Source: an uncultured Gammaproteobacteria bacterium
Lineage (GTDB): Bacteria; Patescibacteriota; Patescibacteriia; UBA1558; UBA10009
Assembly: GCA_964588165.1 (NCBI GenBank)
Contig: CAZPMS010000006.1
Span: forward strand, 3,425 to 67,424
DNA: 64,000 nt
Direction: 5' to 3'
The notes under the pieces were generated by a model. It ran no database searches, had not been told where the DNA came from, and saw only the letters and a program-made list of their open reading frames with translations. Both the position numbers and the translations under genes were made by a program. Below, piece by piece: positions 2,511 through 49,156 of the stretch (position 1 is its first letter; the number at the start of each line of letters is the position of its first letter).

Positions 2511-5075
2511 ATTAGCAGTGTCCTGCGAAAGCTTCATCCTTTCCAAAATCTCCTGTTCTACAATATTCCTGTCTCGGCCGTACTTTAAGCGCGAAGCTTC
2601 TTTAACTTTAAAAACGATTGATTTATCACCAGGCTTTGGCGGATAAGTTTTAATGTTAAAAGCCGGCACGTTCTGGTTATCTATTAATAATTTTAGATAG
2701 GCGTTAAACTTAGGAATATTTATTAAATCATATTCATTAAAAACAGGGTTAAACTGTTTAGCCACTAGTTCGGCATCATCCGGGCCTATCCTAAAGGAAG
2801 CCATTGTACCTACATTGCCAAAAACAGAATCCCTGATAGAAGTATCGTTGCCTTTTACCAGCTGGCCCACATATTGGTGCGCCACAGTTAAACTTAATTT
2901 ATATTTTCTGGCTTCTGATAAAATTATAGAAATGCTTTCGGTAATGAAATTTTGGAACTCATCTATATATAAATAATAATCGTGCCGCTTTTCTTCTGGC
3001 AATTCTACTCTGGAGAGGGCGGATATTAGAATCTTGCCAACAACTACCATGCCCAATAAATTTGCGGACATATCACCAATGGTCCCTTTGGCCAGTTTAA
3101 TTAGCAAAATCTTTTTCTTGTCCATTACTTCTCTAAAATTAAAAGAACTTTTTTGCTGGGCAATAATCGGCCTTAATAAATCGCTGGAGACAAATGGAGT
3201 TAATTTACTGGTGATATAAGGAACCATATTAGCCAATGATGCTTCGCCGCCGGCTTTTTCTGCCTCTTTCTCCCAAAAATCCCTTACCACCGGATTTACA
3301 CATTTAGAAAGCTTGTATCTCCTAAAATTAGGGTCGGCTAAAACCTTGGGTACTTCCAATAAAGTTGAGCCGGACACAGGATCTTCCATCATTAGCAGCA
3401 TGGCATTACGCATATACTGTTCAAACATTGGGCCACCGGTGGCTTTAAGGTCGTAGAGCTTATCAAAAATATTTATCATTTCGTTTATCACGAAAGTTTT
3501 TTGTTCCGGCGTGCTAAACTCCAGCATATTAAGCCCGATAGGCCTCTTGGTATCAGCTGGATCAAACAAAATTACATCGTCTACTCTGCCTTCGGGGATA
3601 TGCTCCATTACTGTTTCTATTAAATCTCCGTGGGGATCTATAACGCAAACGCCTTGGTTATTTTTAATGTCTTGGATTATCATGTTGGACATAAAAACAG
3701 ATTTACCGGTACCGGACTTGCCAATTATATACATATGCCTTAAGCGGTCCGAACTTTTAATTCTTATTGGCGCTTTTATTCCCCGATATAAATTCTCTCC
3801 CAAAATAAGGCCCTCTTTGGGTAAATTAAGAGGCGGCGTGGCCTTCCTGGCTTCTAACCAATTTATATTAGGTGTTTCTGAAGAAGGCAAAGGCAAGTGC
3901 CATAGGCTGGCCATTTCTTCAGCATTTAAAATTAAACTTTTTTTTGGAATAAAACTTCTATGGATAAAATTGGAGATCAATTTGGGAACTTTAATAAATT
4001 TTGCTTTTTTAAATCCATTGCCATATTCATAAATATTAAACTGAGAAAAAGCATTAATAATATTTTCTAAATAAGCCTCGGCCTTTTGCCTGTTTGGAGC
4101 AGAAACCACTACCCTTATGTTTGCTTCCATGCCTGCCTTGCTGGTTTTTTCTTCAATACCTTTTACCACCTCTGCTTCCATGGGAGAAAGCATTCTTCTT
4201 TCATCTGCTTCTTCTATATTTTTAGAAGCATCCTTTTTAGTTTTAAAAAAGCTTAAAGTGCCAACCACAGCGTTGGTTAGCTTATCAAAAATATTGCCTA
4301 AGCCTGCTTTCCTTAAAGCTACACTTAATTTTTTACCCTGTTGCATTTCTCTTGCTACAATTACTCCTTTGCGATGCCAGCTTTTATAAGCAGACCTAGC
4401 CACCAGCTGAATGGCTGCTCCTGATTCTTCACCTATTTTTGAAAAAGCATTGGTTAAAGCATTTAACGGATCGCTATCAGACTTTTTGTAAGTTTTAATT
4501 GGAAAAATAAAATCTCTGCCAAACTTTAAATAACTGCCAACCACCACGCCCTGGGCAGAAAAAATATTATAGTCTTCTAACTCCTCTATCTGTGCAAAAG
4601 GGTAAGAAGCATGGATTTGCTGTTCTAGGGTATCTTTTAAATAATCAGGAATGGCTACATAAAAATTAATCTTGCCATTTTGGGTTACGATTTCTACAGA
4701 AAAATGGTCTGATCTGCCAAAGATCCAGCTCTTTGTCCCTCTCTGGGCTTTAAGGCCGCCTAAAACAGAAAAAATGTTTTCCGCTACACCTATTTGTTCT
4801 TGGATTGTTTGGGGGGAATCATCGGCACCTTCTTTTTTTAAATTTTCTTTAGGCACGGTAATGAGCAAAATTTTCATTTTTAAAGCAGAAGGAACCTTAT
4901 TGCTTTTGGCTAAAAAACTTCTAACAATTAAAAAGGCGGTTATTAAAACCACCAACAAGATAAATATTAAAATAAAAGCTAAAAACCAAGTATTTTCCAA
5001 AAGGGCATTAGCCTGGGCAGTAAAAGGCGAATTTGACTCTATAACTATTTGCAAGGCAAACAAAGTTAAATACAT
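2505..5075 (-). CDS. membrane-anchored VirD4/TraG/TraD-like coupling-protein ATPase (FtsK/HerA superfamily), 856 aa
   Basis: N-terminal transmembrane helices; Walker A IIGKSGTGKS; Walker B YLYIDEFQNF; a long C-terminal domain as in the type IV secretion coupling-protein / DUF87 family. Confidence 0.55.
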   Translation of the reverse strand: MYLTLFALQIVIESNSPFTAQANALLENTWFLAFILIFILLVVLITAFLIVRSFLAKSNKVPSALKMKILLITVPKENLKKEGADDSPQTIQEQIGVAENIFSVLGGLKAQRGTKSWIFGRSDHFSVEIVTQNGKINFYVAIPDYLKDTLEQQIHASYPFAQIEELEDYNIFSAQGVVVGSYLKFGRDFIFPIKTYKKSDSDPLNALTNAFSKIGEESGAAIQLVARSAYKSWHRKGVIVAREMQQGKKLSVALRKAGLGNIFDKLTNAVVGTLSFFKTKKDASKNIEEADERRMLSPMEAEVVKGIEEKTSKAGMEANIRVVVSAPNRQKAEAYLENIINAFSQFNIYEYGNGFKKAKFIKVPKLISNFIHRSFIPKKSLILNAEEMASLWHLPLPSSETPNINWLEARKATPPLNLPKEGLILGENLYRGIKAPIRIKSSDRLRHMYIIGKSGTGKSVFMSNMIIQDIKNNQGVCVIDPHGDLIETVMEHIPEGRVDDVILFDPADTKRPIGLNMLEFSTPEQKTFVINEMINIFDKLYDLKATGGPMFEQYMRNAMLLMMEDPVSGSTLLEVPKVLADPNFRRYKLSKCVNPVVRDFWEKEAEKAGGEASLANMVPYITSKLTPFVSSDLLRPIIAQQKSSFNFREVMDKKKILLIKLAKGTIGDMSANLLGMVVVGKILISALSRVELPEEKRHDYYLYIDEFQNFITESISIILSEARKYKLSLTVAHQYVGQLVKGNDTSIRDSVFGNVGTMASFRIGPDDAELVAKQFNPVFNEYDLINIPKFNAYLKLLIDNQNVPAFNIKTYPPKPGDKSIVFKVKEASRLKYGRDRNIVEQEILERMKLSQDTANK

Positions 5076-5083
5076 ATATAATT

Positions 5084-5611
5084 TTACTTTCTATTTTTTA
5101 AACCTAATATCCTATCAGCTTTTATTTTAGCTTCTTGTTCTAAAAAAAACCTGTTTACTCCAGGAATAATTTTAAGCCAGTTTATAATTAGTTCAAATAT
5201 TTTTTGTGTTTTAATTTTGGCAGCGCCTAAGAGTTGTGAAATTTTTGTAGCTGTTTCTTCGCCGGCCTTTCTAAATTCCTTCTGTTTTTCGGGCGGCATT
5301 TTGCTATAAACTTCAGCAAGGCCAGTTTCTAAAACACTCTCTATTTGCTTAAAATAGACTCCTTTAGCAACTACTGGCTGTGTTTTTATTGGTTTTGCCG
5401 GAACTGAGATTGGCGGTTCCTCTTTTTTGCCTTTTTTAAATTCCTGGTCAGCCGGCAAAGCCTCTGTTTTAACCTCCTGTTTTTGTTCAGGAACTAAATC
5501 TGGAATTTCTAAAATCTCGGGCTGTTTTTTTATAGCCTCTTTTTTAGGCAACTCTGAAGCAACTTCCAGCCCTGCCAGCGGATCTTCTATTTTATCTTGA
5601 TTTTTATCCAT
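5084..5611 (-). CDS. hypothetical protein with a Lys/Glu/Pro-rich low-complexity N-terminus (175 aa)
   Basis: ORF immediately upstream of, and probably co-transcribed with, the VirD4-like gene. Confidence 0.45.
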   Translation of the reverse strand: MDKNQDKIEDPLAGLEVASELPKKEAIKKQPEILEIPDLVPEQKQEVKTEALPADQEFKKGKKEEPPISVPAKPIKTQPVVAKGVYFKQIESVLETGLAEVYSKMPPEKQKEFRKAGEETATKISQLLGAAKIKTQKIFELIINWLKIIPGVNRFFLEQEAKIKADRILGLKNRK

Positions 5612-5678
5612 CTTAGCTTTTATTATACAATATTATTGGTTAATCTTCAATAAAATGATATAATTTAAATGTAAAATA

Positions 5679-5707
5679 CTACACACTACCAACTACAAAC
5701 TAATACC
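5679..5707. repeat. G-less CTAC(A/C)AACTAC / CTACTCACTA repeat (T family), copy 1
   Basis: ctacacactaccaactacaaactaatacc directly before the corA ATG. Related copies at 6644, 6742, 10946 and 59724. Confidence 0.5.
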
Positions 5708-6640
5708 ATGCCAAAATCAAAAAACATCAAAGAGATTAAAACCAATAAAATGAAATGGATTTACTTAACCAATAACTCAAAAAGGGAAATTGATTATTTA
5801 AGGAACCATTTTTCTTTCCACCCATTAGATCTAGAAGATTGCCTTTCTCCGGCTCAACGGCCAAAGCTGGATGAATACCAAAACTATATTTTTATGATAA
5901 TGTCTTTCCCCTATTTTAACCGTTCTACCAGAGAAATACTGGCATCGGAAGTGGATTTTTTTATTGGCCCAAATTATTTAGTAACCGTTTCTGACGGCAA
6001 GCTGGCACCTTTAGCCAATTTTTTTGAACAATGCCAAATTAATGATTCTTACCGAGAAAAGTTTTTAGTTGATAGCCCGGCTTTTTTACTTTCAGAAATC
6101 TTAAATAAGCTTCAGCTTTACCTCCACCCAATGCTGGACCATATTCATGTTGATATCGAAAATGTCCAAAAAGTTATATTTGCCGGCTATGAAAAAAAGA
6201 TGGTTAAAGAAATTTTAATGGTTAAACGAAATATTATCAGCTTTAGAAAAATTATGCAGGCCCATAAAAACGTTATCCGCAAGCTCATTTCTAAAAAAGA
6301 AAAATTCTTTATTCCCAACACGGCTAATGTTTATCTTTCCAATAATCTGGAACAATCTAAAGATGTTTGGGATAATCTAGAAAGCCTTAAAGAAAATGTA
6401 GAAGCTTTGCATACAACCAACGAATCTTTAATTTCATTCAGGTTAAACGACATCATGAAAATTTTAACCATGATTTCTGTGATACTCCTGCCGATTAACT
6501 TAATTGCTTCCATTTTTGGCATGAACACGCCAATTATGCCTTTTATAAATAATCCAAACGGCTTTTATATTATTTTAGGCCTAATGTGCTGTTTGATAGT
6601 GTCTTTCTTCTTTTTCTTTAAAAAGAAAACTTGGCTATAA
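5708..6640 (+). CDS. corA: CorA-family Mg2+/Co2+ transporter
   Basis: 310 aa; C-terminal two transmembrane helices with the GMN signature (IFGMNTPIMPF). Confidence 0.8.
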   Translation: MPKSKNIKEIKTNKMKWIYLTNNSKREIDYLRNHFSFHPLDLEDCLSPAQRPKLDEYQNYIFMIMSFPYFNRSTREILASEVDFFIGPNYLVTVSDGKLAPLANFFEQCQINDSYREKFLVDSPAFLLSEILNKLQLYLHPMLDHIHVDIENVQKVIFAGYEKKMVKEILMVKRNIISFRKIMQAHKNVIRKLISKKEKFFIPNTANVYLSNNLEQSKDVWDNLESLKENVEALHTTNESLISFRLNDIMKILTMISVILLPINLIASIFGMNTPIMPFINNPNGFYIILGLMCCLIVSFFFFFKKKTWL

Positions 6641-31374: not shown

Positions 31375-31995
31375 TTATCCTTTAAAATCGTTTTTATATA
31401 TAAAATCTACAATATTTCGTATTTGACTCATGTACGGTAGATACATATCATGTAAAATGACTTTCTTTAATTGCCATTTTTCTATGTTTATATCCCGTTC
31501 AGATTTGTCACGATATTTAGCTTTCAACAATGCAATATTTTCAGGTGTATCAACCAAAATATTAAGATTGGATTGATTCTTAAAAATTATAGATGATAAT
31601 AACCCCTCAAAAAGAACTAATTTACATTTAGAAGCATCAATGTAAATTTCTTTATCTAACTCTCCGTTACTAATATTGTAACAATTTTTTTCTACAAATT
31701 TCTGTTTTTGTTTAATTTTTTCTAACACCTCCTGTGCCTTTTCTTTATTATACCAATCCATCAAAACACCTTTATCTTGCTCAAATTTATCTTTCCACTG
31801 TGTTCGAGGGATCTTGAAAAATAAATCCATCGTAAGTAAAATGGATTCTTTAAGGGAATATTTAATAATCTGATCTGCAAGATAACTTTTACCACTTCCT
31901 ACAATACCCTCAATAACTATAATAACTGGAAAATTTGTTTGCTCCTGTAAACTAATTATTTTTTGCTTAATTTTTTTAAATGTTACTGAGTCCAT
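31375..31995 (-). CDS. P-loop kinase (uridine kinase / phosphoribulokinase-like)
   Basis: Walker A GIVGSGKS at the N-terminus; 206 aa. Confidence 0.4.
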   Translation of the reverse strand: MDSVTFKKIKQKIISLQEQTNFPVIIVIEGIVGSGKSYLADQIIKYSLKESILLTMDLFFKIPRTQWKDKFEQDKGVLMDWYNKEKAQEVLEKIKQKQKFVEKNCYNISNGELDKEIYIDASKCKLVLFEGLLSSIIFKNQSNLNILVDTPENIALLKAKYRDKSERDINIEKWQLKKVILHDMYLPYMSQIRNIVDFIYKNDFKG

Positions 31996-32034
31996 AAAAT
32001 TCCCTTTTCAGTAATTAATATCTTATCATGCAAA

Positions 32035-32130
32035 TGGCAGGGATTTGCCCCGCTTTTCGTGAAAGGCGGGATAAAAACCCAGACCAACGGTTTTGGACCC
32101 AGCCCTTCGCGAAGGGCTGGGTGGAGACCC
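32035..32130 (-). pseudogene. partial copy of the tRNA-Trp 3' half interrupted by two GC-rich hairpins
   Basis: Minus strand reads GGTCTCCA[cccagcccttcgcgaagggctgggtcc]AAAACCGTTGGTCTGGGTT[tttatcccgcctttcacgaaaagcgggg]CAAATCCCTGCCA. It matches positions ~29-76 of the adjacent tRNA-Trp and has no 5' half. Confidence 0.6.
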
Positions 32131-32148
32131 TCAAAAATCATATTATTT

Positions 32149-32223
32149 TGGCAGGAGCGCTAGGATTTGAACCCAGACCAACGGTTTTGGAGACCGTCAT
32201 GCTACCATTGACACCACGCTCCC
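32149..32223 (-). tRNA. tRNA-Trp (anticodon CCA)
   Basis: GGGAGCGTGGTGTCAATGGTAGCATGACGGTCTCCAAAACCGTTGGTCTGGGTTCAAATCCTAGCGCTCCTGCCA; cloverleaf with anticodon loop CTCCAAA; CCA encoded. Confidence 0.85.
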
Positions 32224-32258
32224 ATCAAAAAAATATGATTATCTTAAATTTAATCTCT

Positions 32259-32483
32259 TTAAAAGACCATGATAAGCGATCCATATTGTTTTAGTTTTCT
32301 TTCCCTCACTTTGGCATCTATTTCTTTCTGATACGCTTCATAATAAAACAATTTGGGATTTTTCATCCGTTTAGTAGTATACACTTTTCCACTTTTATGT
32401 TCAGACAATCGTCTATTTAGGTTATTAGTATACCCTATGTATATTTTCCCATGATCATCAAGTTGTAAATAAACATAATACAT
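32259..32483 (-). CDS. small GIY-YIG nuclease family protein (74 aa)
   Basis: YYVYLQLDDHGKIYIGYTNNLNRRLSEHK matches the GIY-(10)-YIG...R...E core; ends 35 nt upstream of tRNA-Trp. Confidence 0.65.
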   Translation of the reverse strand: MYYVYLQLDDHGKIYIGYTNNLNRRLSEHKSGKVYTTKRMKNPKLFYYEAYQKEIDAKVRERKLKQYGSLIMVF

Positions 32484-32552
32484 AATCGCTTTTCTTAATT
32501 CTTAAAAATAGATATCAAAAAACACTACTTACCGATTACTGTTTACTAATAA

Positions 32553-32963
32553 CTAATTTCTCAGATACTGTTCAAGATTTAAATCATCAATAAGTTCTGG
32601 AAATTTCTTTAGCAAATAAACATGGCGATCTGTTCTTTCACCGGTAGCCTCATTAAACAGTGGGTTGCTGCCGGTATATACTGTATCTTTACTGTTACCG
32701 TATTTATTCAGGTTTTTTTCTTCCAGCCATTGGTCTATTTTTTCTTTGCCTTGTGAAGTGAGTTGAGCCACGAAATCATCAGCCCATCCTTCACCCTGTT
32801 CTTCCCACCAGTTTTGAGCTTCATCCAAACCTTGGTTGATTAGTAAAGGAGTTTTTTCTTCAACTTTAGTTTGCCAAGAAGCCAGCCAGGCAGAAATATC
32901 TTCATGCCAGATAAGGCCGACTAAAGCACCCATTATTATTATGAATAAAAGCGTCTTTATCAT
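32553..32963 (-). CDS. hypothetical secreted or membrane-anchored protein, Trp/acidic-rich (136 aa)
   Basis: N-terminal hydrophobic helix followed by an acidic, W-rich soluble region. Confidence 0.45.
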   Translation of the reverse strand: MIKTLLFIIIMGALVGLIWHEDISAWLASWQTKVEEKTPLLINQGLDEAQNWWEEQGEGWADDFVAQLTSQGKEKIDQWLEEKNLNKYGNSKDTVYTGSNPLFNEATGERTDRHVYLLKKFPELIDDLNLEQYLRN

Positions 32964-32981
32964 ACTTTTGATAAATTTAGC

Positions 32982-33137
32982 TTATTTAGTTTCTTTGTGG
33001 AGGGTATGTTTTTTACAATGTTTACAGAATTTCTTAAGTTCCAATCTTTCCTTTAAAGTTTTTTTGTTCTTTCTGGAATATTGGTTGACTCTTTTGCACT
33101 CTGTACATTCTAACTTTATCAAGTTATCTTGCGACAT
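32982..33137 (-). CDS. rpmG: 50S ribosomal protein L33
   Basis: 51-aa [54 protein letters not shown] with the C-x2-C...C-x2-C L33 pattern; missed by the ORF track (<60 aa). Confidence 0.85.
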
Positions 33138-33211
33138 AGTATTTTTAGTTAAATTACAAATTATTTAATGGCCGCGCCATGAAGTTTATGAGCGCAGCGA
33201 ATAATACTTCA

Positions 33212-33286
33212 TGGAGCCGAGAAGAGGAATCGAACCCCCAACCTACAGTTTACAAAACTGTTGCTCTACCATTGAGCTATCTCGGC
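33212..33286 (-). tRNA. tRNA-Thr (anticodon TGT)
   Basis: GCCGAGATAGCTCAATGGTAGAGCAACAGTTTTGTAAACTGTAGGTTGGGGGTTCGATTCCTCTTCTCGGCTCCA. Confidence 0.85.
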
Positions 33287-33308
33287 GTGTATCTATTTTT
33301 AAAATGTT

Positions 33309-33415
33309 CCTACAGTTTATGCCGCCTTTAGGAGGTGGCAAAACTGTTGCTCCCTGCCCCGTTTACTCCAAACAAATGTGAGGAGTTATGCGGGGTACCA
33401 TTGAGCTACAACGGC
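33309..33415 (-). pseudogene. partial tRNA-Thr(TGT)-like 5' copy with hairpin insertions in the D-loop and anticodon loop
   Basis: GCCGTTGTAGCTCAATGGTA[ccccgcataactcctcacatttgtttggagtaaacggggcagg]GAGCAACAGTTTTG[ccacctcctaaaggcggcataa]ACTGTAGG. Acceptor GCCGTTG differs from the intact gene (GCCGAGA). No T-arm or 3' end. Confidence 0.6.
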
Positions 33416-33553
33416 TCGTTAGACTCACGATGCCTCTCAACTTCGTTCGAGACACTCGACTTCTTCTTAATATATCTCATTATATATCTCATTAATAAAT
33501 TATGGTCGTAGGCCACGAGCGTAGTATCGAACAAAGTGAGATACGAAGTCGAG

Positions 33554-33638
33554 TGGTGGGCCGGGCAGGATTCGAACCTGCGAAGGCAGAGCCAACAGAT
33601 TTACAGTCTGTCCCGTTTGACCGCTTCGGTACCGACCC
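33554..33638 (-). tRNA. tRNA-Tyr (anticodon GTA), long variable arm
   Basis: GGGTCGGTACCGAAGCGGTCAAACGGGACAGACTGTAAATCTGTTGGCTCTGCCTTCGCAGGTTCGAATCCTGCCCGGCCCACCA. Confidence 0.85.
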
Positions 33639-33885
33639 ACAAATTTTTAACTAGCTCCTTAAAGGCTCTTCCTCCTTTATAAGATTTTATCAGAAGCTCT
33701 CTTTTATATGCATCTTGTTTAGAAAAATATCTTTCCGAATAAACCAACTTCCAAGGGACACCTGATTTTGTTGATTTTACAAAACCTTTATTATGTCTAG
33801 CTAAACGATTAAATAAATTCTTACAATGACCTGTATAGTATCTATCTAAAGATTTACTATGCAATATATAAACTATAAACATCAC
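33601..33885 (-). CDS. small GIY-YIG nuclease family protein (94 aa) whose last 13 codons and stop lie inside tRNA-Tyr
   Basis: FIVYILHSKSLDRYYTGHCKNLFNRLARHN GIY-YIG core. The C-terminus WVGTEAVKRDRL* is encoded by the tRNA-Tyr 5' half (tgggtcggtaccgaagcggtcaaacgggacagaCTGTAA), with TAA sitting in the anticodon loop. Confidence 0.6.
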   Translation of the reverse strand: MMFIVYILHSKSLDRYYTGHCKNLFNRLARHNKGFVKSTKSGVPWKLVYSERYFSKQDAYKRELLIKSYKGGRAFKELVKNLWVGTEAVKRDRL

Positions 33886-33938
33886 TTTTCATTTAAGATT
33901 TATGCCCGCCTATGGCGGCACCCCGCCGTAGGCGGTGG

Positions 33939-33995
33939 CAGTCTGTCCCGTTTATCCCGCCAAAGGCGGCGATTTGACCGCTTCGGTACCGACCC
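33939..33995 (-). pseudogene. partial copy of the tRNA-Tyr 5' half ending after anticodon-loop ...CTG, with a D-loop hairpin insertion
   Basis: GGGTCGGTACCGAAGCGGTCAAA[tcgccgcctttggcgggata]AACGGGACAGACTG then unrelated hairpin sequence; lies immediately upstream of the GIY-YIG ORF. Confidence 0.65.
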
Positions 33996-33997
33996 GA

Positions 33998-34085
33998 TGG
34001 AGCCGTTGTGCGGACTCGAACCACAAACCCCTTCCTTACCCCCGCAAGATTTCGTTTCACTCAATCTGCGGGGCAAGCATGGAAG
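33998..34085 (-). pseudogene. partial tRNA-Thr(GGT)-like 3' half with a 39-nt hairpin in the anticodon loop
   Basis: CTTCCATG[cttgccccgcagattgagtgaaacgaaatcttgcggggg]TAAGGAAGGGGTTTGTGGTTCGAGTCCGCACAACGGCTCCA; 3' acceptor strand CAACGGC complements the GCCGTTG of the 5' fragments. Confidence 0.6.
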
Positions 34086-34103
34086 TATATCCTGCCAATA
34101 GCC

Positions 34104-34179
<76 letters not shown>

Positions 34180-34202
34180 GCCTGGCTATTGGCAAAAAAT
34201 AA

Positions 34203-34273
34203 AAGTGCTCCCTGCCCCGCTTACTCCGAACAAAAGTAGGAGTTATGCGGGGTACCAACTGAGCTACAACGGC
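34203..34273 (-). pseudogene. partial tRNA-Thr(GGT)-like 5' fragment with a D-loop hairpin
   Basis: GCCGTTGTAGCTCAGTTGGTA[ccccgcataactcctacttttgttcggagtaagcggggcagg]GAGCACTT. It stops in the anticodon stem, where the 3' fragment at 33998..34085 begins (CTT overlap). Confidence 0.6.
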
Positions 34274-34318
34274 AATAATGTTTTTTTAAAAAAACATATT
34301 CTTATGGCATAACTTCTT

Positions 34319-34371
34319 TCTACCCCAGCCAAAGGCTGGTCCGCCTCTGACGGAAACTGAGCTATGTCGGC
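34319..34371 (-). pseudogene. third truncated tRNA 5' fragment with a D-loop hairpin
   Basis: GCCGACATAGCTCAGTT[tccgtcagaggcggaccagcctttggctgg]GGTAGA. Confidence 0.45.
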
Positions 34372-34394
34372 ACGTTAGGCATTACTTTATTTAA

Positions 34395-35279
34395 CTATAA
34401 CTTCTCAATCACTTCCTTAAATTCTGATAATTTTTGATTTTCAGGATTAACTTCCTTTAACTGGCTAAAAGCCTTTAAAGCAGCACCTTTATCTCGGACT
34501 ATTATACTGACTTCTATCAAAAAGTCAAGAACTTTGGGGTTATTAGGCTCAATACTGGCAGCACGGCTAATTATTTCAAAGGCCTGTTCCGGCTCATCTA
34601 AATTTAAATATACTTCGGAAAGGTCCAAATAGCTGGAAATATCGGTTGAATCTAATTCTAAAGATCTCTGTAACTCCTGCTGGGCCTTTTTTAAATCACC
34701 TTTATCTGAAGCAATTTCACCCAAGCTCCGATAAACAGAAGAATCCTGATCGTTTAAATTTAATAGGAATTCAAAGGTTTCTTTAGCGTGTTCGTAATCT
34801 TTCTGTTCTAAATAAAGTTTGCCTAAGCCTTTATAGGCAATAGTGTTTTTATTATCAACCTGCAGGATTTCAATATACTTTTTTTCCGCTTCAGCATATT
34901 TGCCAAGTTTAGCTAAAGTTTCTGCTTCAGTTAAAAGCTGGTTAGTAAACTGCTGTTTATCAACTTTATCTTTAAAGCTTGATTTGAGCGTCTTGTGCCT
35001 GTATTTTTCCTCCAACTCTATCAAGCGCTGATACCAATTTTTAGATTTACTTATAATTAGTCTGCCCAAGGGTTTTAAAAATAATAATGATTTATCCAGA
35101 GTTCCTTTAAATCTTCTATCTAACCTTTCTTCTAAAATTTTTCTTTTTACCTGAAGCTGCTTTACCATGGGGGTTGCCTTAGAATTTACAGCTACTGCCT
35201 TGGGTACCTTCTTTAAAAAAATGTAAGCAATAACTCCCAAGCTAACTATAATGATTACTATTAAAACGTAAAAAAACAT
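34395..35279 (-). CDS. TPR-repeat protein with N-terminal transmembrane anchor
   Basis: 294 aa; N-terminal helix, then several 34-aa TPR-like units (AEAEKKYIEILQVD..., AKETFEFLLNLN...). Confidence 0.6.
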   Translation of the reverse strand: MFFYVLIVIIIVSLGVIAYIFLKKVPKAVAVNSKATPMVKQLQVKRKILEERLDRRFKGTLDKSLLFLKPLGRLIISKSKNWYQRLIELEEKYRHKTLKSSFKDKVDKQQFTNQLLTEAETLAKLGKYAEAEKKYIEILQVDNKNTIAYKGLGKLYLEQKDYEHAKETFEFLLNLNDQDSSVYRSLGEIASDKGDLKKAQQELQRSLELDSTDISSYLDLSEVYLNLDEPEQAFEIISRAASIEPNNPKVLDFLIEVSIIVRDKGAALKAFSQLKEVNPENQKLSEFKEVIEKL

Positions 35280-43965: not shown

Positions 43966-44236
43966 CGATTTTTAAATTCTTATTAACTCGCTTTATTAAA
44001 TCCAATTTTTTAAAACGACTCCATTTTTTTAACTGTTTTTCTCTATCAATCGCTTCAATAATACTTTCATAACTTTCAAAATAAACTAATTCATCAACAT
44101 TATATTTTTTAGTAAATCCTTTTAATTTTAATTGATGTTCATCTAATCTTCTAGCTAAATCATTGGTAACTCCTATATAAATCACTGTTCTCCTATGATT
44201 CATTAAAAAATAGACGTAAAATTCTTTTTGTAACAC
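43952..44236 (-). CDS. GIY-YIG nuclease family protein (94 aa)
   Basis: FYVYFLMNHRRTVIYIGVTNDLARRLDEH canonical GIY-YIG core. Confidence 0.75.
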   Translation of the reverse strand: MLQKEFYVYFLMNHRRTVIYIGVTNDLARRLDEHQLKLKGFTKKYNVDELVYFESYESIIEAIDREKQLKKWSRFKKLDLIKRVNKNLKIVFPE

Positions 44237-44309
44237 ATTTTAAACTTTCCTACCCTGATACATTTATTAACGGGATCTCTCCACCTTGGTCGAGATGACG
44301 TCTGAGAAA

Positions 44310-48886: not shown

Positions 48887-48975
48887 ACTAATGTAGATAG
48901 ACGAAAATACTGCCCGCCAAAGGCGGGTCCGCCCTTGGCGGAAACTACCCGGCAAACTTGTTCGCCGAAGAGGCG

Positions 48976-49004
48976 AAATAAAAAACCCGCCGAACTTGGC
49001 GGGA
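48976..49004 (-). terminator. intrinsic terminator after the lipoprotein gene 49157..50077
   Basis: Minus strand cccgccaagttcggcggg followed by ttttttat. Confidence 0.6.
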
Positions 49005-49156
49005 TTATTACTTTTTACTAAATAACAACTCACCAAGTTCTAAACCGGTTATTATTGTTTAAATTGTTGTCTTTTCTTAACATATTAATAATTTATCAGA
49101 TTTAATCTATTTGTCAACTCTTCCTAGTTACTAATTACCAGTTACTAATTACCAAC

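Follow-up and report, generated by a model that had tools for sequence, protein, structure and literature searches.

A GIY-YIG nuclease gene, a double hairpin and a displaced tRNA copy recur together at bacterial tRNA genes as a putative selfish unit

Islands, phages and integrative and conjugative elements (ICEs) integrate into tRNA genes by means of tyrosine or serine recombinases and bring with them a replacement segment for the 3' end of the gene. Short GC-rich hairpins are multiplied by other elements, the repetitive extragenic palindromes (REPs) with their REP-associated tyrosine transposases (RAYTs) and the IS200/IS605 family, both of which use HUH-type (His-hydrophobic-His) tyrosine transposases. 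Among the free-standing GIY-YIG nuclease genes of T-even phages, segB lies in the tRNA cluster of phage T4; its preferential inheritance is due to break-induced gene conversion of flanking DNA, and SegB is also a driver of tandem amplification in the tRNA region (PMC2330249, PMC13096335). Here we analyze a 64,000-nucleotide (nt) stretch of contig CAZPMS010000006.1 (below, the window), in which a small GIY-YIG open reading frame (ORF) lies between a displaced, hairpin-interrupted piece of a tRNA-Tyr gene and an intact tRNA-Tyr gene. Nuclease ORF, double hairpin and partial tRNA copy together look like an undescribed selfish element that is present in dozens of species and enters essential tRNA genes while leaving their function alive. 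An earlier reading of the locus from its letters alone (the sequence-only reading) had recognized no described type of bacterial mobile element in it; in agreement with this, literature searches turned up no account of a GIY-YIG gene in linkage with bacterial tRNA genes, or of hairpins inserted in such genes.

Like the tRNA-integrating islands, phages and ICEs, the unit carries tRNA sequence that regenerates the gene and leaves a displaced partial copy as a direct repeat; however, it spans about 0.35 kb rather than kilobases, has no recombinase, and replaces mostly the 5' part of the tRNA. Short GC-rich hairpins that multiply and nest, one small nuclease gene and apparently structure-dependent targeting are shared with REP/RAYT and IS200/IS605, but the enzyme is of the GIY-YIG type, and the targets are tRNA loops instead of extragenic or tetranucleotide sites. 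As with segB, a nuclease gene is situated between tRNA genes (PMC2330249, PMC13096335). The Seg proteins, however, have C-terminal DNA-binding domains and fall into the homing endonuclease cluster, their loci contain neither a hairpin module nor a partial tRNA duplication, and their genes are phage-borne, whereas the nuclease of the window is an 80-amino-acid (aa) domain of the Slx1/UPF0213 type with no viral relatives found. Group I introns in the anticodon loops of bacterial tRNA genes, some of them with homing endonuclease genes and others lacking these (PMC13011429, PMC3984707), likewise occur at or next to position 35/36, preserve tRNA function and are found in hosts of the Candidate Phyla Radiation (CPR), but they restore the tRNA by RNA splicing rather than by a second DNA copy and possess a ribozyme, while none was detected here and the hairpin module is only about 35 nt long. 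In the 'fractured genes', whose split-intein halves have a homing endonuclease gene between them, a nuclease gene similarly splits an essential gene and a rescue is built in, yet by protein trans-splicing instead of duplication of a tRNA segment (PMC2677866). Finally, the best sequence and fold matches of the protein are the minimal single-domain members of the UPF0213/Slx1-like family (E. coli YhbQ, B. subtilis YazA, BH0048 and EF2693), which have been described as vertically inherited, repair-related and of unknown function (PMC1564403, PMC7017083). Unlike the unit described here, this family has no reported linkage to tRNA genes or hairpin modules, and linkage to tRNA genes is not mentioned in the 2006 survey of the GIY-YIG superfamily (PMC1564403).

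The sequence of the window (AT-rich, 36% GC) agrees fully with a 167-kb metagenome scaffold in ENA that comes from a bacterium of Patescibacteria type. Examination of the window confirmed all parts named in the sequence-only reading: a tRNA-Tyr relic with a hairpin in its D-loop, two GC hairpins, the GIY-YIG ORF and a complete tRNA-Tyr gene (Table 1). The relic starts 2 nt past the 3' end of an old, interrupted tRNA-Thr gene. Beyond its D-loop hairpin, nt 21-35 of the intact tRNA-Tyr recur with 100% identity at 33953-33939; comparable hairpins occupy the same place in seven of the relative loci retrieved for comparison, which carry L numbers (L006, L008, L011, L015, L019, L033 and L040). The two hairpins that follow, each of the form CCGCC-N3-GGCGG, constitute a module, designated M, which is found at the same position in dozens of loci; the CCGCC-N3-GGCGG pattern has 7 matches in the window versus 0.1 expected. 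In the sequence-only reading the relic broke off at CTG, immediately before M. In fact it resumes after M with TAAATCT, so that the break lies about 7 nt further on and the hairpins are an insertion in the anticodon loop of the relic; an equivalent continuation of 5-16 nt past M is present in other loci. The final 13 codons of the ORF are indeed nt 1-38 of the intact tRNA-Tyr, and its stop codon is the TAA of the anticodon loop, as had been proposed. The database version of the protein starts from the ATG at 33882 and has 93 aa.

Nine contigs encoding exactly the same protein share an identical arrangement, and the four places displayed represent four different samples. The arrangement is far beyond chance and is not an artefact. 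A scan of positions 31500-35000 against Rfam at E<=1 yielded only the four intact tRNA genes and no ribozyme; two sub-threshold matches (E about 0.9-1) that overlap intact tRNA genes are due to chance. Between the tRNA repeats, the ORFs are the GIY-YIG ORF and short frames overlapping it, with no integrase or transposase ORF among them. Single-strand folding of the relic region is modestly better than that of shuffled sequences (z = -3.2 for DNA and -2.1 for RNA), and a promoter and terminator scan gave counts at chance level and was thus uninformative.

To see the unit in other genomes, we scanned 185,579 species-representative genomes, one genome per species, which revealed 313 relatives of the nuclease; the best 80 were examined. 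An intact tRNA gene stands beside the ORF in 71 of these 80 loci: it follows on the same strand within 60 nt of the ORF end in 63 and ends just before the ORF in 8, and in 3 loci the contig terminates after the ORF. About 30 loci have tRNA-Tyr(GTA) as the adjoining gene, and about 37 have a tRNA-Ser, for which four isoacceptors are represented; the remaining four loci have Thr, Glu or Pro. The hosts include many CPR lineages, Saccharibacteria, Melioribacter/Ignavibacteria, Chlorobiota, Bacteroidota and Omnitrophota, and the arrangement is also present in the complete genomes CP064992 and CP181398. Comparison of these loci documents both the architecture and its recurrence. The usual order is tRNA nt 1-35, M, tRNA nt 36 to about 42-51, the ORF, a gap of 0-16 nt and the intact tRNA gene, and M with its closing stem is always located 15-30 nt ahead of the start codon. 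The unit thus consists of three parts, namely a displaced tRNA copy interrupted by M, a nuclease gene of about 80 aa, and an intact tRNA gene that keeps the host viable. The upstream nt 1-35 are in most loci 100% identical to the intact gene, contrary to the suggestion that this half had simply been left behind to decay.

Among the 80 loci, the ORF stop lies as early as 16 nt ahead of the tRNA and as late as 63 nt inside it (nearly all at or before +38). Most homologs stop before the tRNA, and only 6 of the 80 have their stop at +37 or +38. Since the stop positions vary and the tRNA-encoded tail is predicted to be disordered, reading into the tRNA appears to be a by-product of a lost stop codon. 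We therefore rejected, on the spread of stop positions, the idea that the TAA stop is a design feature; its borrowing from the target, as formulated in the sequence-only reading, is incidental. The coincidence of relic break and ORF stop, which had been taken as a signature of insertion, follows from the anticodon loop of tRNA-Tyr reading CTG and then TAA and from the ORF having lost its own stop.

The consensus of M is CCACCGCC-N3-4-GGCGGGG-T-NCCGCC-N4-GGCGGN-A, about 35 bp in length. Changes in its stems are compensated (CCATCGCC/GGCGAGG, CCACTGCC/GGCAGGG), and the outer pair of hairpin 2 is G..C, C..G or T..A; the instances were gathered by a regular expression fixing most stem bases, so that these compensatory changes are of qualitative value only. 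The two hairpins are roughly reverse complements of each other, which makes M two-fold symmetric, and M can fold either as two hairpins or as one long hairpin. In 61 instances the left flank matches the intact tRNA of the same locus; the anticodon loop holds 36 of them, the D arm or loop 19 and the T-loop region 6. As the tRNA sequence resumes within 0-2 nt past M in 38 of the 61, the insertion is clean. Some copies of M also harbour M-like hairpins nested in their loops (L033, L037, L047 and L048). Rather than mere packaging of a cassette, M is a conserved module that cleanly interrupts tRNA loops and nests in itself. M variants follow the clades of the nuclease, which points to a cognate pair of protein and site. 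Excision of M-like instances restored a complete tRNA in 0 of 122 cases, so that M is confined to partial copies and is no intron of working genes. On these grounds, a role of M as an intron of functional tRNAs was rejected.

The protein encoded in the window matches the Pfam GIY-YIG family PF01541 with 45.8 bits (cut-off 22.6; E=7.6e-12). Multiple alignment of 35 homologs revealed (nearly) invariant residues Y5, Y16, G18, R26, H30, N31 and E62, so that the catalytic Tyr, Tyr, Arg, His and Glu of GIY-YIG domains are conserved. In the AlphaFold2 model (predicted local distance difference test score, pLDDT, 86.6) the secondary-structure elements are those expected for the beta-beta-alpha-alpha-beta-alpha fold of GIY-YIG domains; residues 1-81 are modelled with confidence, and the tRNA-encoded tail 82-93, with pLDDT <50, is predicted to be disordered. 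The family core comprises 79-83 aa, and the 13 tRNA-encoded residues are the sole extension of the window protein. A profile search of PDB ranked the UPF0213 proteins BH0048 (1zg2, E=2.4e-10) and EF2693 (1ywl, 5.8e-9) first, followed by the structure-specific nuclease SLX1 (1e-4), with I-TevI at just 0.048; Foldseek returned the same order. Neither a C-terminal DNA-binding domain of the I-TevI/Seg kind nor a match to TIGR01453 of NCBIfam was found in the window protein, and NCBIfam contains no family for the ORF. The alignment of 35 homologs has no invariant Asn after E62, and N90 of I-TevI was not structurally aligned; absence of this conserved C-terminal Asn separates the Slx1-like domains from the lineage of UvrC and homing endonucleases (PMC1564403). 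From the sequence and fold matches, we assign the protein to the single-domain minimal nucleases of the Slx1/UPF0213 type (YhbQ/YazA); it is not a classical homing endonuclease of the I-TevI kind.

Ratios of nonsynonymous to synonymous substitution rates (dN/dS) of 0.04-0.20 in pairs of close homologs, in which synonymous sites are often saturated, indicate that the nuclease is under purifying selection. The nuclease profile is matched by 21,169 clusters at 50% identity. Many database homologs have N-terminal extensions of 20-50 aa, which are produced when gene callers read through M, a module free of stops. Five database homologs with 56-65% identity end in ...TEAVKR(D/G)RL and, as judged from these shared ends, likewise read into tRNA-Tyr.

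Comparison of the loci also revealed rearranged and derived copies. In L070, L072 and L022, an intact tRNA is followed by 6 nt, the ORF, tRNA nt 24/29-35, M, and tRNA nt 36 to the end. This permuted form and the common one are circular permutations of one unit, as would result if recombination could be resolved in one tRNA arm or the other. L018, L061 and L079 contain identical tandem units, L066 contains internally deleted units that lack the ORF and retain 12 nt of its start, and the relics range in condition from pristine to decayed (L012, L058, L021). The displaced piece in L066, L073 and L022 derives from a different tRNA allele than the intact gene; because of this difference, a whole foreign tRNA was evidently brought by the cassette in these three loci, to which the proposal that it carries a tRNA 5' half does not extend. 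An old D-loop insert is common to the relics of L011, L015 and L019; each of these relics nevertheless agrees with its own tRNA at all 7 sites at which the tRNAs differ, which amounts to concerted evolution of relic and tRNA.

A search of metagenomes for empty sites, with nt 1-48 of the window tRNA-Tyr as the query, identified 23 loci, 6 of them occupied by the ORF. Two empty loci are syntenic with the window. In L102 the order is the TPR gene, tRNA-Thr(GGT), 4 nt, tRNA-Tyr, 7 nt, tRNA-Thr(TGT) and the L33 gene, and in L104 single nucleotides separate Thr, Tyr and Thr. Both have the same tRNA-Tyr 5' sequence as the window, in a single gene, and contain no ORF, hairpins or fragments. Thus, the empty site that the sequence-only reading had anticipated in relatives does exist, and with L102 and L104 empty the arrangement is not common to all orthologous loci. 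The locus L089, with 90% identity to L104 over 3 kb, has a 155-nt ORF-less scar at the start of tRNA-Tyr. In total, the orthologous site is empty in L102 and L104, occupied in the window, L005, L088 and L093, and scarred in L089 and L100. The Tyr relic of the window, 2 nt after the old tRNA-Thr, is at the ancestral position; its spacing is as in the empty clusters and supports insertion. The core of the sequence-only reading, that is, insertion of a cassette into tRNA-Tyr with regeneration of a working tRNA and with the original 5' part left upstream, therefore stands, although several of its details do not. No empty allele was found within the species of the window, all nine contigs with the identical protein having the same arrangement.

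Some of the retrieved loci show further peculiarities. In L064, nine tandem copies with an 86-nt period (3451-4161), each containing tRNA-Tyr nt 64-86, lie downstream of an intact tRNA-Tyr. In L092 (1940-2030), a Levybacteria-like segment (as in L026) is joined exactly at M to a Parcubacteria-like segment (as in L005), and this is probably a chimeric assembly through the M repeat; L002 (1-231), which has the tRNA cluster of the window behind a different upstream gene, may resemble it. The M-interrupted tRNA-Tyr fragment at 3252-3348 of L022 is called tRNA-Ser(TGA) by ARAGORN. In L038, both tRNA-Tyr copies (2814-2923 and 3269-3392) contain runs of masked N after GAGCGGTC in the D-loop, the content of which is unreadable.

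On balance, we consider it somewhat more likely than not that the unit is a selfish cassette which relies on recombination triggered by its nuclease at tRNA genes in order to spread and persist, and which provides a working copy of the tRNA. Both its mobility and the mechanism are suggested by the comparative data. In particular, the nuclease would break the structured DNA of tRNA genes, or M, and recombinational repair off a cassette-bearing copy would duplicate the unit into the target by a homing-like gene conversion, with the tRNA-derived segments serving as homology arms. Each insertion would regenerate a working gene and, with it, a fresh target, since the missing part of the tRNA (sometimes the whole tRNA) comes with the unit. 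Tandem arrays, dead copies nested in layers and the occurrence of two circularly permuted arrangements would all be accounted for in this way, and the site that the nuclease itself binds or cleaves is most likely M. Much more tentatively, the unit may belong to a new class of structure-targeted DNA elements that combine an Slx1-like enzyme with its cognate double hairpin and make the host dependent through the replacement tRNA. In this version, the enzyme would recognize the cloverleaves or hairpins that DNA extrudes at strongly transcribed tRNA genes, M would be inserted or propagated in tRNA loops, killing the resident gene, and linkage to a replacement tRNA would turn essential-gene replacement into an addiction strategy.

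Several points weigh against a selfish cassette. Cleavage, transfer and excision have not been observed, and mobility is deduced from comparison alone. The protein has no DNA-binding domain and its family is regarded as vertically inherited repair enzymes (PMC1564403), so that sequence-specific homing is not expected from the fold; moreover, the regenerated tRNA stays an intact target, which leaves a simple homing model without an immunity step. With its poor resolution, the neighbour-joining tree of the 80-aa protein does not demonstrate horizontal transfer, and viral contigs searched for relatives of the nuclease contained none, so that a phage origin is unsupported. Finally, the strong purifying selection, the conserved position within the Thr-Tyr-Thr cluster and the concerted evolution of relic and tRNA would also fit a unit of long residence that is useful to the host. 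Such a conserved operon, in which the nuclease maintains or processes tRNA genes or their transcripts, and the relic with M is a structured leader that controls or stabilizes the mRNA and is released by RNase P at the tRNA 5' end, seems to us quite improbable. It agrees with the strong selection on the ORF and the concerted evolution, with the ORF end abutting the tRNA 5' end in nearly all loci, with the constant distance of M and its closing stem from the start codon, and with the reported fusion of prokaryotic Slx1-like domains to tRNA methyltransferases (PMC1564403). However, relatives with the same tRNA have syntenic clusters in which the site is cleanly empty, occupancy is patchy among Tyr, the Ser isoacceptors, Pro, Glu and Thr, and just 313 relatives were found in the 185,579 species-representative genomes; in addition, there are tandem, permuted, internally deleted and decayed copies, and resident tRNAs have been replaced by different alleles.

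Alternatively, M itself could be the real parasite, a 35-bp element similar to miniature inverted-repeat transposable elements that inserts into the loop-encoding parts of tRNA genes, with the GIY-YIG protein acting in trans as nuclease or 'transposase' or resolving the damage; the tRNA duplications would then be survivors, since only cells with a spare copy live. Clean insertion into three loops of many tRNAs and into its own hairpin loops, the resemblance of M to two abutted inverted terminal repeats, and a conservation across phyla that exceeds that of the protein are in agreement with this possibility, as are copies of M without an adjoining ORF (the T-loop copies of L080, the repeats of L066, and the Thr(TGT) and Thr(GGT) relics of the window). 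Nevertheless, we find it unlikely, as M was never seen in an otherwise complete tRNA (0/122) and is confined to tRNA loci in the sequence examined, and the ORF lies outside M, not between its arms as in an autonomous transposon; in addition, no GIY-YIG transposase is known. The remaining explanations are largely excluded and only marginally probable. Integrating elements duplicate part of a tRNA, and the repeats could accordingly be att duplications left by an integrase, but the locus has no integrase or transposase ORF. A self-spliced or protein-spliced tRNA-Tyr intron would be in line with the enrichment of position 35/36 group I introns in tRNAs of Patescibacteria (PMC13011429); however, Rfam detected no ribozyme in 31500-35000, the non-ORF portion of the insert is below 60 nt, and the intact tRNA is contiguous DNA that needs no splicing. 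M is able to cause chimeric joins in metagenomes, as in L092, but an assembly artefact is at odds with the presence of the arrangement on nine exact-protein contigs (from four samples among those displayed) and in the complete genomes CP064992 and CP181398.

If confirmed, the selfish cassette would be a nuclease gene that colonizes an essential, highly conserved gene without an intron or intein, carrying a replacement piece instead; the dense accumulations of tRNA fragments and GC hairpins in small genomes, those of CPR included, would find their explanation in it. Such accumulations mislead gene callers (read-through of M), tRNA finders (the false tRNA-Ser of L022) and assemblers (the L092 chimera). 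The uncharacterized bacterial Slx1/UPF0213 family is thereby linked to tRNA genes, and a structure-targeted element, if true, would provide the first concrete biological role for the large UPF0213/YhbQ family. One carrier, Melioribacter sp. OK-6-Me (L061), is apparently a cultured isolate, so that experiments would be feasible.

Table 1. Features of the tRNA cluster in the window (positions in the 64,000-nt stretch)
Feature	Positions	Strand	Evidence
Relic tRNA-Tyr, nt 1-23	33973..33995	-	100% identity to intact tRNA-Tyr nt 1-23
GC hairpin in D-loop of relic, ~22 nt (19 nt + repeated AAA), TCGCCGCCTTTGGCGGGAT	33951..33972	-	
Relic tRNA-Tyr, nt 24-35, ending ...ACAGACTG after anticodon nt G34	33939..33950	-	100% identity
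Two-hairpin module M (CCACCGCCtacGGCGGGG-T-GCCGCCataGGCGGGC-A) in relic anticodon loop	33903..33938	-	
Relic continuation TAAATCT (tRNA-Tyr nt 36-42), closing anticodon stem around M	33896..33902	-	
Minimal GIY-YIG nuclease ORF (Slx1/UPF0213-type)	33601..33885	-	Pfam PF01541 E=7.6e-12
Intact tRNA-Tyr(GTA), functional copy	33554..33638	-	ARAGORN; Rfam tRNA 60.1 bits
Old tRNA-Thr(GGT), acceptor GCCGTTG...CAACGGC, three insertions	33998..34273	-	
Insertion 1 in old tRNA-Thr(GGT): D-loop hairpin	34212-34252	-	
Insertion 2 in old tRNA-Thr(GGT): nested intact tRNA-Thr(GGT)	34104-34179; paired flanks 34184-34194, 34093-34103	-	
Insertion 3 in old tRNA-Thr(GGT): anticodon-loop hairpin	34040-34077	-	
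Still older tRNA-Thr 5' fragment (GCCGACATAGCTCAGTT), then two hairpins	34325..34371	-	
Relic tRNA-Thr(TGT) 5' part, D-loop insert and anticodon-loop hairpin between TTTG and TAAA	33309..33415	-	
Intact tRNA-Thr(TGT), downstream of Thr(TGT) relic	33212-33286	-	
Second GIY-YIG ORF, 74 aa, T5orf172-like subfamily	32259..32483	-	Pfam PF01541 E=7.8e-13
Intact tRNA-Trp, 35 nt downstream of second GIY-YIG ORF	32149-32223	-	
Displaced tRNA-Trp 3' fragment	32035..32129	-	
Perfect 26-nt palindrome ACCCAGCCCTTCGCGAAGGGCTGGGT in anticodon loop of tRNA-Trp fragment	32097-32122	-	
T-loop hairpin in tRNA-Trp fragment	32048-32075	-	

The remaining genes of the cluster, tRNA-Thr(GGT), tRNA-Thr(TGT) and tRNA-Trp, bear the same kind of damage. 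Upstream of the Tyr relic, removal of the three inserts from the old tRNA-Thr(GGT) yields a perfect cloverleaf tRNA-Thr(GGT). The second of these inserts contains an intact tRNA-Thr(GGT), the leader and trailer of which form a 27-nt inverted repeat. The GCCGTTG-type acceptor of the old gene is also found on the intact tRNA-Thr of the empty-site relatives L102 and L098. The same nesting is seen in L053, where an intact tRNA-Tyr lies within a hairpin inserted in an old tRNA-Tyr. A 41-nt structured insert (CCCCGCATAACTCC...GGAGTAAGCGGGGCAG, 91-100% identical) occupies the D-loops of both dead genes, Thr(GGT) and Thr(TGT), at 34212-34252 and 33354-33395 of the minus strand.

The second GIY-YIG ORF of the window belongs to another subfamily and precedes tRNA-Trp. 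In L008, a tRNA-Trp relic with the identical 26-nt palindrome is followed by an ORF with 67% identity, 4 nt and an intact tRNA-Trp, and in L084 the D-loop of a tRNA-Val relic contains a two-hairpin module. Relatives of the second ORF likewise precede tRNA genes (Trp, Val, Glu, Arg and Thr), at distances of 44-68 nt. Two GIY-YIG subfamilies therefore share one plan and use different hairpins. Two matched nuclease-hairpin pairs are thus available, the specificity of which is directly testable. The L008 locus (5400-5800, minus strand) comes from an unrelated metagenome-assembled genome, and the order of the unit differs between it and the window.

A third small GIY-YIG ORF (44018-44237, minus strand) shares 42% identity with the second; it comes after an aminoacyl-tRNA synthetase gene and has no tRNA gene next to it. 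It is flanked by CTCGAC-containing repeats resembling the spacer downstream of tRNA-Tyr (33416-33553). Three further GC hairpins, among them an adjacent pair (TCCGCCaaggGCGGA, CCCGCCtttGGCGGG), are located at 48887-49010 of the minus strand, with no clear tRNA fragment or GIY-YIG ORF alongside, just upstream of an intact tRNA-Asn.

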